DNA from: Candidatus Bathyarchaeota archaeon
GTDB lineage: Archaea; Thermoproteota; Bathyarchaeia; Bathyarchaeales; Bathycorpusculaceae
Reading direction: 5' to 3'
Length of the DNA stretch: 64,000 nucleotides
NCBI GenBank assembly: GCA_963720565.1
Contig: CAVRFW010000001.1
Span: forward strand, 22,823-86,822
A program made the translations under genes and the position numbers. Positions 7,465-13,776 of this stretch are shown here, piece after piece. Each line of letters starts with the position of its first letter. Within the stretch, counting starts at the first letter, position 1. The notes below the pieces were generated by a model. The model made no database searches. It saw only the letters and a program-made list of their open reading frames with translations, and was not told the origin of the DNA.

Positions 7465-8259
7465 GTGATAGGCGAAAAAATTGGTGAAGCCGATTACGTA
7501 GTTCTCTATTTGGATGTGCGGAGAACATACATGGTTAAAGTGGAGGCGGGAAAAACCTTCCACACTCACAAAGGATTTCTGAAGCTTGACGACCTTGTCG
7601 GCAAGAATTATGGCGAGGCTATTCGAACCAGTCTCGGGATAGATTTTACTGCACTAAAGCCCTCTTTGATGGATTACATCATGAAGTCTTCTCGTAACAC
7701 GCAGATAACTTACCCCAAGGACGCTGCACTAATCGTTATGTTTAGCGGAATTGGCTCTGGTAGCAGAGTAGTCGAGTCAGGCACGGGAACAGGCGCCTTA
7801 ACGACAACGCTTGCTCACTACGTAAAACCTGGAGGAAAAGTCTATAGTTATGAGATGCGAGAAGAATTCCAGAAAGGAGCCGAAAAAAACCTCAGACGCG
7901 CCGGTCTGCTGGAGTATGTGGAGCTAAAGAGTGGAGACGCGACAGTAGGGTTTGATGAAAGAGATGTGGACGCAGTGATATTGGATCTGGCTGTGCCATG
8001 GCTGGTGATACCTCATGCTTATGAGGCTTTGAAATCTTCTGGATCAATAGTCTCGTTTAGCCCGACCATGGATCAGGTTGTAAAGGCAACGGAAGCGCTC
8101 AGAGAACAAAACTTTGTCTGCATTGAAACCGTTGAGTGTCTAATGCGGGGCATGCAGGTTGAACGGGGAAAAACTCGTCCTCAAACGTTGATGACAGGAC
8201 ACACTGGCTACATCACTTATGCACGCAAAGCGCTGAAAGGGGTTTCTCAAGAGAACTAG
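7465..8259 (+). CDS. trmI: tRNA (adenine-N1)-methyltransferase TrmI/GCD14
   Basis: FHTHKG, RNTQITYPKD, VVESGTGTGALT, AVILDLAVPW, TRP...GHTGYI. Confidence 0.95.
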   Translation: MIGEKIGEADYVVLYLDVRRTYMVKVEAGKTFHTHKGFLKLDDLVGKNYGEAIRTSLGIDFTALKPSLMDYIMKSSRNTQITYPKDAALIVMFSGIGSGSRVVESGTGTGALTTTLAHYVKPGGKVYSYEMREEFQKGAEKNLRRAGLLEYVELKSGDATVGFDERDVDAVILDLAVPWLVIPHAYEALKSSGSIVSFSPTMDQVVKATEALREQNFVCIETVECLMRGMQVERGKTRPQTLMTGHTGYITYARKALKGVSQEN

Positions 8260-9866
8260 ACAGTGCTTTCGAGAAAGGGTTCTTGATTGCCTAAGGGTTT
8301 TTGAGGCATTCCAAGCTTCCAGAAGGCTTGTTTTAGCTGTTCACCGCGTTTTCGCCCGTAGTAGTAGCCAGCCACCTTTGCTAGAGAGGGAATCGCTACA
8401 TTGTTGATTGCTTTGAAGAGTAGGGGGTTAGAGTACCTGTTTGCGAGGAACGTGTTGCGCCAGATCTTAATATTGTATTCCCAGCATCGGAGGAAGAAGT
8501 CCCAGCGGACCCTGGAAAGTGAATCCAGTTCTGCGCCTTTTTTGTTCATGAGAACACAGTTTTCCAATGGCACAAAGAAAAGAGGAACGTAGAACGCGTT
8601 GTAGTCTTTCAGTGAATCCATCAACTCAAGGGTGTCTAGAACATCTTCTTCTTTTTCGTCGGGAAGCCCAATGATTAGAGTAGCCAATGGATACCAATTG
8701 TTGTCGTTCAGAATACCAAAGGCTTCAGCCACTATTTCCGGCCACTGTTCAGGCTTATAAGGGAGCATCTTGCCAGTCATATACTTCCTCATCAATCGGG
8801 TACTGCCTGTTTCAATACCGGTTTCTGCCGTAACTATAGCTTTCCCGCCGTGAGAGTACCAGCTGCGTTTGATAAGGATCTCGGACAGGTCTTTTACCAT
8901 GCCGGGATTGCAGACGACAGGTGTCAGGGACATGTGTGAGGCTTGAATGCTTTCTACTCCAGGATGTTCCGCAACGGTTCTCGTCAGTTTCACGACCGCT
9001 TCTTTGTTTGGGATGAAACTTTGGTCTCTTGCGCCGTAAAGGAACAAGTCCTCAGTTACAAGGGTTATGTGGGCGCAACCCTCTGAGGTTGAGATTTTCA
9101 CTTCATCCATTATTCGGTCCAGGGGCACATCTACTTTCTTCTGCATGGTCGGTGTGCAAAACTGGCAGTTGCGACCGCATCCTTTGGAAATTTCGATTGC
9201 TCCGTGGATGGCCGCGTGCTTTGTTAAGGGCGTATCATAACCGTTGTTCTTTACCTCGGGAAGTTCAATGCGGATAACGCTAGGGAGATTTTCTCCGTTT
9301 ACGGCTTTTCCAAAAACCTCTATTATTGCATCTATCCTAGTGCCTATGACCACGCAGTCTATCCCGAGGCTTTTTGCAGCATTATTTCGTTCCAATTGCC
9401 AAGAGCCAAAACCCCCAACTATGATTTTTGGCTTAAACCGTTTGATGGCGGGGTTAGTCAAGAGTTTTCTGAACTCAATCGCGTTCATCGGTTCGCCTCC
9501 GCCTATGATGGAAGAGTAAGTCTTGCTGACGTAACCCATTCCCGTGGGGTCCATCGAAGAAATTCCAATTGCTTTTGTGTCAGGTCCTATGAAAGTATCT
9601 AAATCCTGAGGGTGGACGACGGCAACTTCAGATTCGCTGTAACCGTGATTCAGGAGGGTTGCCTCGACCTTCCTGAGTCCGTATGGTGCGTATCTTGCTC
9701 TGCCGTCGATTGTGCGGTCACCAGCGGGATAAAGGTATCGTCTCACGTATCGTAAAGGAAAGGGGCCTTTGCCGAAGCCCGCCACGAAGGCCATGAATGG
9801 ATTGTTCTCGTAGTCACTCATCTCAGTGGCTGGAGCAGTGAGGACAATTTTGACGCCTGATCCCGT
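8256..9866 (-). CDS. B12-binding/radical SAM protein (MJ1487-like); start probably upstream of the called ATG 9821
   Basis: CxxxCxxC GCGRNCQFC, APYGLRKVEA, GIETGS; the frame extends to GSGVKIVLTAPATEMSDY with ACG at 9864-9866 behind a GGAGAG SD. Confidence 0.85.
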   Translation of the reverse strand, partial: TGSGVKIVLTAPATEMSDYENNPFMAFVAGFGKGPFPLRYVRRYLYPAGDRTIDGRARYAPYGLRKVEATLLNHGYSESEVAVVHPQDLDTFIGPDTKAIGISSMDPTGMGYVSKTYSSIIGGGEPMNAIEFRKLLTNPAIKRFKPKIIVGGFGSWQLERNNAAKSLGIDCVVIGTRIDAIIEVFGKAVNGENLPSVIRIELPEVKNNGYDTPLTKHAAIHGAIEISKGCGRNCQFCTPTMQKKVDVPLDRIMDEVKISTSEGCAHITLVTEDLFLYGARDQSFIPNKEAVVKLTRTVAEHPGVESIQASHMSLTPVVCNPGMVKDLSEILIKRSWYSHGGKAIVTAETGIETGSTRLMRKYMTGKMLPYKPEQWPEIVAEAFGILNDNNWYPLATLIIGLPDEKEEDVLDTLELMDSLKDYNAFYVPLFFVPLENCVLMNKKGAELDSLSRVRWDFFLRCWEYNIKIWRNTFLANRYSNPLLFKAINNVAIPSLAKVAGYYYGRKRGEQLKQAFWKLGMPQKPLGNQEPFLESTV

Positions 9867-10096
9867 TGTATTTTCTCTCCGAACTATTTCACTTAAACAG
9901 AAAACAAGAAGTATCGAACTGGCTTATTATAAATTGCGTACGACAAATGTTCAGAAATCCTAAGTGTATCTTATTGCAACATAAACAAAGACTTGCTTCA
10001 TAACGCACGCGGTCTTATTATGCACTGCAACAGCTAAAACAGCGATTTTCTTGGCGCGTACTCGACGCCTTTTCGCTTTCTTCTCCTTCTGCGTGC

Positions 10097-10303
10097 TTAG
10101 TTGGAAACGTCTCTTTCCAACAAAGCGCAGTAGGTCAACCATTCATTACCTTGATCTAGACTCGCTATATTGAAAAACTTGACGATCCACCCGTCCTTTG
10201 AAAGTTGTTTGATTTCTTCGAAAAACTCCTTAAAAGCAACAGGATCGCCTTTTTTGAGAAGATAGCTCGACACTGGCTTGGAAACTGATTTGTATTCCTT
10301 CAT
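10097..10303 (-). CDS. Small hypothetical protein, DUF4177-like
   Basis: MKEYK...IKQLSKDGW...LLER pattern; GGTGA SD. Confidence 0.55.
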   Translation of the reverse strand: MKEYKSVSKPVSSYLLKKGDPVAFKEFFEEIKQLSKDGWIVKFFNIASLDQGNEWLTYCALLERDVSN

Positions 10304-10664
10304 TTTTCACCACAATTTTTAGTGTTGCTCACAGGTATTTACTCACAGCAACGCTATTTCTTCGCAAAAATTTATGATTTATTAATTTTCAAACAATATT
10401 GCAGAACACACTTTTCCTCGCGCTAGCGAAGCGCAAAAACCAGTAAGAACTTGCTAGAAAGGACCTTTTAATCAAACCTGAACCATGGACAACTATGAAA
10501 AATGATCTTCTTGTGACGAAGCAATGATCTAAGAGCAAAACTGTGTTCGCTCGTATACAAAAGCATCGACGAAACACACTTGAAAAAAGGTCTACTCATG
10601 GAAAAACTCTGAACAAAGAATTATCAGAAAAGGTCTCTTAGCAAGTTATCATGCGCTAATGAAA

Positions 10665-10735
10665 AATAGTCCATGGATGAAAAAGGACGGGAAAAAGTGG
10701 GGAGAAAAGGCTAAATGGTTTTTGAAGCAAAAACC
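10665..10735 (-). terminator. Hairpin followed by pyrimidine tracts, putative terminator downstream of the sRNA/alaS
   Basis: Perfect 8-bp inverted repeat GGTTTTTG-aag-CAAAAACC (10717-10735), followed on the minus strand by several T/C runs. Confidence 0.4.
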
Positions 10736-10788
10736 GGTCTTCGTTCGAGAATTGAATAAGCGGCGCACCTTATAGCTATTCCCTTGCA

Positions 10789-10856
10789 TTGCCGTCCGAG
10801 TAACTCTGAACTTTCATCCTTGATTGTCAAGCTAATGCCTTTTCATCATCCGGCAA
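10789..10856 (-). ncRNA. Box C/D guide sRNA (2'-O-methylation guide)
   Basis: On the minus strand: C box ATGATGA (10849-10843), 12-nt guide, D' TTGA (10830-10827), C' AGGATGA (10820-10814), guide, D-like CGGA (10798-10795), 6-bp terminal stem TTGCCG/CGGCAA. Confidence 0.75.
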
Positions 10857-10962
10857 GAAGTATTTAACTTGAACAAAAATAAAAGCGTTCTTAGCGCACT
10901 CTGGCTACTGCAGCTTGTCCTATGATTGTTCCCTGAAAGGCCATCGCTAGAGGATTGTGCTT

Positions 10963-13776
10963 TTAGTGCTTCAGCTGGTTTCTAATGTGTTCCATTGCTG
11001 CTTTTGCGGCGTCGGATAGTCTTTTTGTTTGTGTTCCTCCAGCTTGTGCGAAGTTTGGTTTTCCGCCTCCGCCGCCCTCGATTATCGGGGAGATTGCCGC
11101 GACGATCTCGTTGGCGTTTACTCCTTTCTTGACTGCTTCTTTTCCCGCGTTGATGATTATGCGGGCTGTTTTTCCGTCTGTCCCGTAGAACAAAGTGACC
11201 GTTGTATCGTTATGTTTTATCATCTCGTTTGACGTTTGAACCATCCGGTTGATGTCGACGTCTTCTCCGAAGTCGCGTTTCACGAGCGTGATGCCTTCTA
11301 TTTCTTGCGTTGCTTCAGAATTGTTTGCCTGATCCAGAGGCTGGCTCTCTTTCGACGCCAATTCTTTGATTAGTCTTCGTTTTTCGGTGTTGGTGTCTTT
11401 AAGTTCCTTGACTATTCTTTCGGCGGTCTTGTCAAGTTTCTCGACTGGCGCGTTTAGGGTTTCTGCTACCTTCCAGAGCAGGCTTTCTTGCTCTTGCACC
11501 TTTTTTAGCGCTTGAAGCCCTACTGCGTAGCCAAGGCGCTCTACGCCGTCTTGGACGCGTTCTGTGTAGACTATTTTGAGAAAGCCTATTTCGCCAGTTC
11601 GCTTCAAATGTGTTCCGCCGCATGCTTCTAGGTCCCAATCGCCGGTTTTAACCACTCGAATATCTTTTCCGGGCACTGCTCCACCCTGATATAGTCTGAA
11701 TCCGTACCGTGATTCGGCCTCGTTTCGAAGCATCCATGAGGTTTCGACCGGCATGTCAGCAAGCACTGCTTGATTGGCTAGAGACTCAATCTCGTGTGTT
11801 TCTTGGGGCGTTAGTCGTCGGTAGTGAGAGATGTCTAGGCGAGAGGTTTGCACAGCTTTCTGTGCTCCATGTTGCCAGACGTGTTCGCCTAAAACGCGTC
11901 TAGCAGCTCCGTTAACCAGGTGCGTGGCAGTATGGGCCTTCATCAGAGCGTAACGTTTGTCCCAATCCAGAACACCCTTAACGCTTGCGAGTTCTTTAGG
12001 CACTGAATTAGCCTTTACTTTGTGAACGATGGTTCTGCCGACCCTTTGCACGTCAATAACCTCAGCCTTCACATTGCCATAGACAAGGTGCCCGTGATCG
12101 GCGGGTTGTCCACCTCCCTCGGGGTAAAAGCATGTTCGATCCAGAACAACATATTCATTGTCTATAACCTTCAGGACCTTGGCGTTAAACTCTGCGGTAT
12201 AAGCGTTTTCATAGTACATCTTTTCGGTCTGGGGCAGTTTTTCGACGGCTGCTTCAAGATTTTCTTTAGCTTTGGTTTCTTCCTCTTCCATCGGCTTGTT
12301 TGCATGCATGTGCCTCTTAGCCACTAGTGCATAGAAGTTTTCGGGGATATCCACTTTAACGCCTTCTGCTTCGGCAACCTGCTTGACGATTTCTGGCGGA
12401 AGACCATGTGAATCATACAGTTCTGACAGGACCGATTCGGGAATTTGAGCGCCCTTTTTCGTTTTGAGGTCGATTGCCAGTCGCTTGATCATTCCCTCGC
12501 CTCTTTTCAGGGTTTCCCCGAATTTTTCCTGTTCTACCTTTAACATTTCTATGATTTCGTCGCGCATGGTTTTGATTTGTGGATAGTCTCTTGACCACAA
12601 GGCAACTTGCATGTCGACTATATCGTAAAGTTTGTCTGGTTCTATGTGCAGGTTTCGGAGCAGACGGTAGACCCGGCGGAACAGCAGTCTTGCTAAATAG
12701 CCTTCTTGGATGTTTGAAGGCACAACACCTTCGGAGAGAATGAAGCTTAAGCATTTAGTGTGGTCCGCCACTGCAAAGGCATTTTCAATTGGAATCAGAA
12801 TTTTGTCCAATTCTTCTAAGGGCATCTTGATGAGTTTAGCTACTTGGGTTCTTGCATCTTGCCGGTTGGCGTTTTTGTCAACACTCACCAAGCCAGAGTA
12901 CTTAGCCACTTTAAACAGCAGGTCATTGTCAATTTTGGTCAATCCAGCCATTTTGAAGACGTTGTCGAGCAGGCTTCCGTAGACAGCGTGGAAACAGCTC
13001 GGAACTCCCTGAGAAAGCCAGGCAAATCGGTCCAAACCATAGCCTGTGTCAACCGTGCGAATAGGCAGTTTAACAAACTCGTCATTAACGACCTTGTACT
13101 GCATAAAAACCAAGGTTGCAACTTCTAACCCGCCTACGATGCACTCCACGTCTGGTCCGGCGTTTCCCCCGCCTACCCAAACGTCCTCTTTGTACGTTAC
13201 ATCTTCAGATTTTACTCCCAACACTTCGGTAACGAACTCGTGATGATACCTAGTCGTTTGGTCTTTCCAATAGACTTCTTTGCCGGGATAATTGAAGGCG
13301 TGATGCCCACCCATCTCAAAAATGGTCAAGTGTCTTCCAAATGTTGGTCCAGTATTTGAAATATCAACCAGTCTAATGCAAGGCTGTGCAATAACTAGGG
13401 GGTTTGCTGGAGGAGGAGAAATCCCTTCCGTTACGTAAGGTTGGAAGTCAATTATGCTCGCGTGAGTTAAGTAGATGTCGCTTCGCCACCTTGCGACCAC
13501 AGGGTATGGCTTGACCCTGGTGTGATCATGTTTCTCAAAAAATGATAGAAAAGTTTCCCTCATCTCGGGAAGACTGTAACGAGTTCTGGTCGGCGGATTT
13601 GCAAGGAAAGTGTAGCTTGCACATCCTTCCGAGGTGGATTCGCCGCATGTCTCCTGTTCAGTGTTTTGAGTCCAGTAGTATTCTTTGCATTTTGGGCAGA
13701 GTTTCCTGACGAATCCCTGTTCCTTGAAGAAAGACAGCGAGTATTCTTCAGACGGAAATCGTTTCAAATTGTTCAA
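10963..13776 (-). CDS. alaS: Alanine--tRNA ligase (archaeal type)
   Basis: N-terminal CPKC zinc motif, YPVVARWR, QPCIR, VDTGYGLDR, editing HTATH...CGGTH, C-Ala GGGGGKPNFAQAGG. Confidence 0.97.
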   Translation of the reverse strand: MNNLKRFPSEEYSLSFFKEQGFVRKLCPKCKEYYWTQNTEQETCGESTSEGCASYTFLANPPTRTRYSLPEMRETFLSFFEKHDHTRVKPYPVVARWRSDIYLTHASIIDFQPYVTEGISPPPANPLVIAQPCIRLVDISNTGPTFGRHLTIFEMGGHHAFNYPGKEVYWKDQTTRYHHEFVTEVLGVKSEDVTYKEDVWVGGGNAGPDVECIVGGLEVATLVFMQYKVVNDEFVKLPIRTVDTGYGLDRFAWLSQGVPSCFHAVYGSLLDNVFKMAGLTKIDNDLLFKVAKYSGLVSVDKNANRQDARTQVAKLIKMPLEELDKILIPIENAFAVADHTKCLSFILSEGVVPSNIQEGYLARLLFRRVYRLLRNLHIEPDKLYDIVDMQVALWSRDYPQIKTMRDEIIEMLKVEQEKFGETLKRGEGMIKRLAIDLKTKKGAQIPESVLSELYDSHGLPPEIVKQVAEAEGVKVDIPENFYALVAKRHMHANKPMEEEETKAKENLEAAVEKLPQTEKMYYENAYTAEFNAKVLKVIDNEYVVLDRTCFYPEGGGQPADHGHLVYGNVKAEVIDVQRVGRTIVHKVKANSVPKELASVKGVLDWDKRYALMKAHTATHLVNGAARRVLGEHVWQHGAQKAVQTSRLDISHYRRLTPQETHEIESLANQAVLADMPVETSWMLRNEAESRYGFRLYQGGAVPGKDIRVVKTGDWDLEACGGTHLKRTGEIGFLKIVYTERVQDGVERLGYAVGLQALKKVQEQESLLWKVAETLNAPVEKLDKTAERIVKELKDTNTEKRRLIKELASKESQPLDQANNSEATQEIEGITLVKRDFGEDVDINRMVQTSNEMIKHNDTTVTLFYGTDGKTARIIINAGKEAVKKGVNANEIVAAISPIIEGGGGGKPNFAQAGGTQTKRLSDAAKAAMEHIRNQLKH

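Follow-up and report, generated by a model that had tools for sequence, protein, structure and literature searches.

A dual-guide box C/D sRNA of Bathyarchaeia with predicted targets at A1913 and A1938 of 23S rRNA

Box C/D sRNAs have been cataloged mainly in cultured, mostly thermophilic archaea. Helices 68, 69, and 71 are described as hotspots of 2'-O-methylation, with dense predictions around E. coli A1912 (PMC4644070). Two sRNAs detected by RNA-seq, Sac-sR113 of Sulfolobus acidocaldarius and IHOsR91 of Ignicoccus hospitalis, carry a D guide that ends in UCAGAGUUAC(U/G) before a CUGA box, and two others so detected, Sac-sR125 and IHOsR109, have a guide ending in AAGGCAUUUGU before CAGA or CUGA (PMC4644070). 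PISsR40 of Pyrobaculum islandicum bears the D' guide CAAGGCAUUU (PMC6009581). In yeast, snR63 guides Am2256 and snR13 guides Am2280/Am2281 (PMC5199042); Am2256 lies in the helix 69 loop, and Psi2258 and Psi2260 correspond to E. coli positions 1915 and 1917 (PMC2794176). Am2256 and Am2281 are both listed as common to Arabidopsis, tomato, tobacco, human, and yeast, in a comparison whose listing gives no Pyrococcus abyssi equivalent (PMC11542601). Within the literature open in full text, a coverage that ends at subscription journals, we found no description of a box C/D sRNA or snoRNA in Bathyarchaeota or Bathyarchaeia.

Here, we describe such a gene in the assembly of a Candidatus Bathyarchaeota archaeon (G000; 13 contigs, 2.09 Mb, 88.8% complete, 45% G+C). 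It lies in a stretch of 64,000 nucleotides (G000:C1:22823-86822), hereafter the window, whose positions are used throughout. The minus strand from 10856 to 10789 is a real dual-guide box C/D sRNA gene of 68 nt with its 5' end at 10856, as delimited by reading the sequence, by the conserved stretch, and by a full-length covariance-model match of 97 bits at 10789 to 10856. Its order from 5' to 3' is UUGCCG G AUGAUGA AAAGGCAUUAGC UUGA CAAUCAAGG AUGAAAG UUCAGAGUUACU CGGA CGGCAA. The terminal stem pairs UUGCCG (10851 to 10856) with CGGCAA (10789 to 10794). The C box AUGAUGA (10843 to 10849), which matches RUGAUGA near the 5' end, is followed by the 12-nt D' guide (10831 to 10842), the D' box UUGA (10827 to 10830), a variable D'-C' loop (10818 to 10826), the C' box AUGAAAG (10811 to 10817), the 12-nt D guide (10799 to 10810), and the D box CGGA (10795 to 10798), which keeps the C and GA of CUGA and varies at position 2.

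The sequence features of an archaeal box C/D sRNA are in place, namely, C, D, C', and D' boxes, a terminal stem, and suitable spacers; the two 12-nt spacers and the 68-nt total agree with the archaeal norm of about 12 nt and about 50 to 70 nt (PMC7994747 for length). The original prediction was of a dual-guide C/D sRNA with complete C-D'-C'-D architecture, a 6-bp closing stem, the variant D box CGGA, and guides complementary to AGUAACUCUGA (D) and GCUAAUGCCUU (D'). Each of these is present on the minus strand as described, and the gene also proves to be independently promoted and widely conserved. A C' box read as GGAUGA would leave a D spacer of 15 nt, and this register was rejected. AUGAAAG, three bases further 3', ends 12 nt before the D box and is the sole register that combines a 12-nt D spacer with pairing of C' position 6 to the first D' base in homologs. 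In the minimum-energy fold of the naked RNA (z-score, -1.99), 5 bp of the terminal stem are kept and the remaining pairs join one guide to the other; such a fold is uninformative for a k-turn RNA bound in an RNP.

The locus resembles the known sRNAs in its guides and departs from them in how those guides are combined. Sac-sR113 and IHOsR91 share its helix 69 D guide, in the same register and with the same predicted target nucleotide, but their D' guides are unrelated to the segment around E. coli A1938 and their D box is CUGA. Their hosts are hyperthermophilic Crenarchaeota, and common descent and convergence under rRNA constraint are both possible. Sac-sR125, IHOsR109, and PISsR40 resemble this sRNA in carrying a guide AAGGCAUUU(G) against the GCCAAAUGCCUU segment, but theirs has the perfect UUUG form, whereas this family has UUAG. 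In Sac-sR125 and IHOsR109, moreover, the guide for the A1938 segment is the D guide of a separate sRNA, whereas here it is the D' guide and both guides stand on one RNA. A variant D box is common to Sac-sR125 (CAGA) and this sRNA (CGGA). Because the Sulfolobus, Ignicoccus, and Pyrobaculum guides match, both target sites had already been predicted in Crenarchaeota, on separate sRNAs; judged from sequence, this lineage and a second class of its phylum have both predicted guides on one RNA.

Rfam gives no match in the window at the gathering score. The best matches below threshold are to SNORD19 (17.5 bits; threshold, 35) and SNORD45 (16.7 bits; threshold, 42), and a weak one to SNORD15 (E = 8.2; 9.3 bits; threshold, 75) spans the D' guide and the C box. 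Matches to snoRNAs at E values of about 1 to 10 are at chance level, and the SNORD15 match shows no homology. Since none reaches its gathering threshold, the sRNA does not belong to a curated Rfam C/D family (e.g., sR2, snoPyro_CD, SNORD15, SNORD19, or SNORD45).

We assessed conservation by searching 60 further family genomes, one for each genus, with 106 nt around the sRNA (blastn). Matches at E values of 3e-12 or better and 81 to 96% identity occur in 46 of them, and all are limited to query positions of about 17 to 88, corresponding to window positions 10788 to 10859 and hence to the sRNA. Nine of the 14 genomes lacking a strong match are at most 88% complete, and the other five (G007, G026, G033, G049, and G054) are 87 to 100% complete. 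A covariance model (R1) built from an alignment of 29 family homologs matches once in each of the 15 family genomes sampled and is found in all 33 genomes sampled across six families of the order. Matches extend to 74 of 151 genomes of the class Bathyarchaeia, including the source assembly, and to 27 of 151 at the level of the phylum; the latter include a genus from another class, in which 6 of 13 genomes match and the RNA has the same dual-guide layout. In a scan of public sequences, 78 of the 80 loci among the matches listed (at least 117 stretches) are labeled Bathyarchaeia or Bathyarchaeota. Two stretches that carry the sRNA have Acidobacteriota labels, L108 (6.9 kb, from a Candidatus Acidoferrum bin) and L114 (4.9 kb, from a Candidatus Sulfotelmatobacter bin), and are probably mis-binned Bathyarchaeia contigs.

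The 29 family homologs show no change in the boxes, in AAGGCAUUAG of the D' guide, in UCAGAGUUAC of the D guide, or in the core of the stem, which bears out the conservation of boxes in relatives to which the original prediction had looked. GAUGA-GA of the C box is invariant, with U at position 5 in at least 90%, and UCAGAGUUAC is nearly invariant across the class. Variation in the family alignment falls on the guide position beside the D' box (position 1), on the bases that precede UCAGAG, on the D'-C' loop, and on all of the flanking sequence; the loop ranges from 2 to 15 nt across homologs and differs in sequence as well. Guide positions 1 and 12 vary, and the paired guide positions are invariant. 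This distribution of change along the sequence fits a guide RNA.

Structural elements covary. In 29 diverse homologs, four of the six terminal stem pairs change on both sides (GCCG/CGGC versus GGCC/GGCC), 91% of cells are paired, none of 500 shuffles reaches the score, and slid controls fall far lower. Positions C'6 and D'1 form a standard pair of one of five types in 128 of 130 distinct homologs (A-U in 107, U-A in 9, C-G in 7, G-U in 4, and G-C in 1; the remaining 2 are A.A), and the D' box reads UUGA in 107. These covariation counts are inflated because they are taken over related sequences, not independent events, and because the stem alignment is partly model fitted. The C'6/D'1 counts indicate that covarying pairs here stand in place of the G-C pair canonical for k-turns.

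The D box varies in its own way. Across 102 distinct homologous loci it reads CGGA in 66, CAGA in 24, CUGA in 11, and CCGA in 1; the canonical CUGA is absent from the 29 aligned family homologs, a point against the C/D reading, and is found in most of the distant families. From these counts and the CUGA of distant families, CGGA is a position-2 variant of a true D box. Position 5 of the C box, which lies opposite D-box position 2, also varies. Judged by its sequence, CGGA could join the C box in the tandem G.A pairs of a k-turn and is predicted to allow L7Ae binding.

The gene has a promoter of its own. A TATA box, UUUUAUUU, lies upstream on the minus strand at 10877 to 10884, and TTTAT occupies this place in 97 of 102 distinct homologous loci, where it starts 27 to 32 nt before the G of GCCGG. 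The purine-rich AAGAAC adjoining it (10887 to 10892, minus strand) is A rich in homologs, the 102 loci having A at positions -35, -34, and -33 with frequencies of 60%, 73%, and 51%; by analogy with known archaeal promoter layout, it would be a BRE. Around these TATA and A-rich elements, the flanks of the sRNA are otherwise unconserved. In archaeal promoters, the TATA box is centered about 26 nt before the start. By this spacing, we infer that transcription would begin at or just before the terminal stem. A CUAUUGAUUU-like stretch at positions -13 to -3 (10867 to 10857 in the window), between the TATA box and the sRNA 5' end, is loosely conserved in many homologs and may be an initiator region, a leader, or a processing signal. 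We saw no conserved terminator at the 102 homologous loci. The public RNA sequences considered are assembled contigs of three libraries, each with a small share of the sampled words. Two such contigs (from 10950 and 10970) cover the 3' end of alaS, and a 196-nt contig from a related organism overlaps 10821 to 10856 and runs into promoter-like and downstream sequence. Because that contig includes the promoter, it speaks neither for nor against a discrete transcript.

Two genes on the minus strand flank the sRNA. The alaS gene (10963 to 13776; Pfam tRNA-synt_2c) has its stop codon 106 nt upstream of it, and a gene for a 521-aa radical SAM protein (8256 to 9821) follows 968 nt downstream. The best NCBIfam matches of that protein, to TIGR04013 (B12-binding/radical SAM) and to MiaB/RimO-like methylthiotransferases, are far below the cutoffs. 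Of 138 homologous loci, about 20 have the radical SAM gene 3' of the sRNA in the same orientation, and in relatives such as L075 and L188 the gene starts about 130 to 220 nt past the sRNA. In the window, the intervening stretch of about 970 nt (9822 to 10788) holds only small open reading frames and no long one; a 68-aa frame at 10097 to 10303 (minus strand) has a weak DUF4177 match (E = 0.005), below the cutoff.

Within the 2.09-Mb assembly, a scan for the full C-D'-C'-D architecture with stem returns this sRNA alone. A looser scan (C box, CNGA, a stem of at least 5 bp, and a TATA-like element upstream) returns three matches, and internal boxes and rRNA complementarity occur together only in this one. 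Two regex scans and a search for rRNA-complementary 10-mers beside box-like motifs, all of them crude, found no second convincing C/D sRNA in the genome, from which a small repertoire does not follow. Outside the window, at G000:C1:6480-6530, GGAUGAUGA is followed by a 14-nt stretch and then by UUGA, and 11 bases of the 14-nt stretch are complementary to LSU positions 59 to 69 of a relative. No complete C/D architecture or promoter is visible at this place, and the resemblance is probably due to chance within coding sequence.

A search with RF02540 finds no 23S rRNA gene in the assembly, which is 88.8% complete. The 16S gene (G000:C9:260696-262189, outside the window) lies in the middle of a 505-kb contig free of any 23S match, so the two genes seem to be unlinked, or else the 23S gene was not assembled or binned. 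Because the organism's own 23S sequence is absent, we read the targets in the LSU rRNA of relatives. The sample consists of seven relatives' loci that span the region, two from the same genus, together with G084 of the sister family f10, in which one of five genomes searched has the target region. All of them read AGUAACUCUGAC...GCCAAAUGCCUUG, the full stretch being GGGAGUAACUCUGACUCUCUCAAGGUAGCCAAAUGCCUUGUCGGG, and positions are numbered by gap-free alignment to E. coli MG1655 rrlH (2,904 nt).

These LSU sequences contain GGGAGUAACUCUGACUCUC, with which the D guide forms 11 uninterrupted pairs, all of them Watson-Crick and made with AGUAACUCUGA of helix 69. The duplex covers E. coli positions 1909 to 1919, which make up the helix 69 loop and the strand 5' of it, and places guide position 5 opposite A1913. 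This 11-bp run is unique in the LSU and SSU rRNAs, and none of 2,000 shuffled guides reaches 11 bp when runs that include position 5 are sought in the LSU of a same-genus relative and the genome's own 16S. We hold with considerable confidence that the D guide would direct 2'-O-methylation of A1913. The original prediction had likewise placed the D target in helix 69, with A1913 at N+5.

The D' guide pairs with the GCCAAAUGCCUU segment, whose N+5 nucleotide is E. coli A1938, the A before UGCC. Set against GCCAAAUGCCUUG, it matches over AAUGCCUU plus one isolated G-C pair. The duplex with CCAAAUGCCUU joins C1935 (guide position 2) and 1937 to 1944 (positions 4 to 11) and is interrupted by an A.A mismatch between guide position 3 and A1936. 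That the match to this nearby segment would extend only over AAUGCCUU, with N+5 on the A before UGCC, had been foreseen, and the relatives confirm it. At 8 contiguous bp plus 1, the pairing is borderline against a criterion of about 9 bp, and it reaches 9 to 10 bp in sister families. An 8-bp run is not significant alone, being reached by 265 of 2,000 shuffled D' guides; because such runs are common in shuffles, the assignment rests on position and comparative data. The best alternative LSU run for this guide is 7 bp.

Comparison among relatives clarifies the mismatch. Since four genomes (G003, G012, G008, and G018) contain both the UUAG guide and CCAAAUGCC rRNA, the mismatch does exist inside single genomes. 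No mismatch arises in two sister families of the order, f6 and f10, which have AAGG(C/U)AUUUG or AUUUA; their AAGGCAUUUG, in the same register, complements CAAAUGCCUU perfectly. In G084, the duplexes shift to guide positions 3 to 12 (D) and 3 to 11 (D'), and N+5 stays on A1913 and A1938. As a feature of the sequences, this constant N+5 register is the strongest argument for both predicted target assignments. The A at D' guide position 3 is invariant in the family though mispaired, which a simple guide model leaves unexplained. Because the D' duplex is short and mismatched, we regard D'-guided methylation of A1938 in the source family as probable with only modest confidence.

Several readings would account for parts of these observations. 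The most serious of them, to which we give a minority chance, accepts a functional C/D sRNA in which only the D guide acts in methylation (of A1913) in this family, the D' half binding the A1938 segment weakly or unproductively and being structural or chaperoning. Its appeal lies in the D' duplex itself, whose 8 contiguous bp are matched by so many shuffled guides and whose A.A mismatch is only two nucleotides away from the target; published in vitro work with archaeal C/D RNPs reports less methylation when a mismatch is close to the target. Yet AAGGCAUUAG is under selection, since it is invariant in 29 of 29 family homologs, and sister families carry a perfect guide in the same register. The C'/D' motif covaries, both spacers have the canonical 12 nt, and sRNAs of Sulfolobus, Ignicoccus, and Pyrobaculum have guides for the same site, all of which speak for a working D' half.

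If the D' guide instead had another, perfect target, CUAAUGCCUU, in a tRNA, another ncRNA, or an mRNA, the invariant A at guide position 3 would be explained by a U in the true target. We consider this very unlikely. The nine exact CUAAUGCCUU sites in the genome are the sRNA and eight others, none at the 29 tRNA genes, and the 19 exact sites in five near-complete relatives are the five sRNA genes and 14 places that share no flanks and include no tRNA. The best LSU alternative stops at 7 bp, and sister lineages match the 23S site perfectly. Hardly credible, finally, is the notion that there is no independent gene here, only a chance motif or an element of the 3' UTR or terminator of alaS. The sRNA does follow the alaS stop by 106 nt on the same strand, but no more than 2 of 138 homologous loci have alaS as the upstream neighbor, and the sRNA is therefore no part of alaS; the 68 nt and the TATA box are kept beside other neighbors, and the shuffle and genome-wide controls exclude chance.

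We therefore return to the reading of a dual methylation guide, for which the genome encodes the protein partners. Nop5 and fibrillarin genes are adjacent on contig C12 (11314-11991 and 12167-12844; PF01798 at 241.5 bits and PF01269 at 322.5 bits), and an L7Ae gene lies at C9:201420-201692 (PF01248, 95 bits). In the mechanism we propose, the stand-alone gene would depend on its own BRE/TATA promoter, transcription starting near the first base of the terminal stem. AUGAUGA and CGGA would form a C/D k-turn closed by the 6-bp stem, AUGAAAG and UUGA would form an internal C'/D' k-loop, and each motif would bind L7Ae and then Nop5 and fibrillarin. The D guide would pair with positions 1909 to 1919 of nascent 23S rRNA before helix 69 folds, placing A1913 for 2'-O-methylation by fibrillarin, and the D' guide would pair 25 nt downstream with 1935 and 1937 to 1944 and direct methylation of A1938. 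An RNP that holds both segments may also aid folding of the H69-H71 region; targets 25 nt apart fit the published idea that dual guides assist local folding (PMC4644070). Taken as a whole, the locus very probably encodes a functional methylation guide that would be expressed from its own promoter and act in an L7Ae/Nop5/fibrillarin RNP.

The two predicted sites have eukaryotic equivalents. Psi2258 and Psi2260 set an offset of 343 between yeast and E. coli numbering. Am2256, two bases 5' of Psi2258, is by this offset equivalent to A1913, and Am2281, 25 nt further on, is equivalent to A1938, assuming no indel between 1913 and 1938. The yeast positions named in the original prediction were these two, and published numbering agrees (PMC2794176, PMC5199042). 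Yeast snR63 and snR13 thus modify positions equivalent to those predicted here, but they are two separate, longer eukaryotic snoRNAs.

This correspondence invites a joint reading in which the single RNA is the ancestral Am1913 and Am1938 guide pair and the A.A mismatch is selected, a combination that we regard as improbable. The dual-guide sRNA may go back to the ancestor that Bathyarchaeia share with other Thermoproteota and may have been split later onto separate sRNAs in Sulfolobus and Ignicoccus. Such an ancestral dual guide may correspond to eukaryotic snR63 and snR13 together with what we take to be their human counterparts, SNORD46 and SNORD15. The family-wide A.A mismatch opposite A1936 may tune or shift methylation, for which yeast snR13, which modifies two adjacent A residues, offers a comparison; alternatively, it is a tolerated defect. 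If the joint reading is true, Am1913 and Am1938 would be among the oldest RNA-guided modifications common to archaea and eukaryotes.

RNAs of this kind are well known but new to the Bathyarchaeia lineage, and the sRNA leaves the known mechanism unchanged. The CGGA/CAGA D box, the replacement of G-C by A-U in C'/D', and the conserved mismatch are natural variants for work on k-turns and guide rules. The predicted sites are 2'-O-methyl sites conserved in yeast, plants, and human, which bears on the age of these modifications. For an abundant uncultured lineage, the locus provides a well-anchored sRNA gene, with a covariance model and a promoter signature, and two precise methylation predictions, one in intersubunit bridge B2a (helix 69) and one in the neighboring segment.
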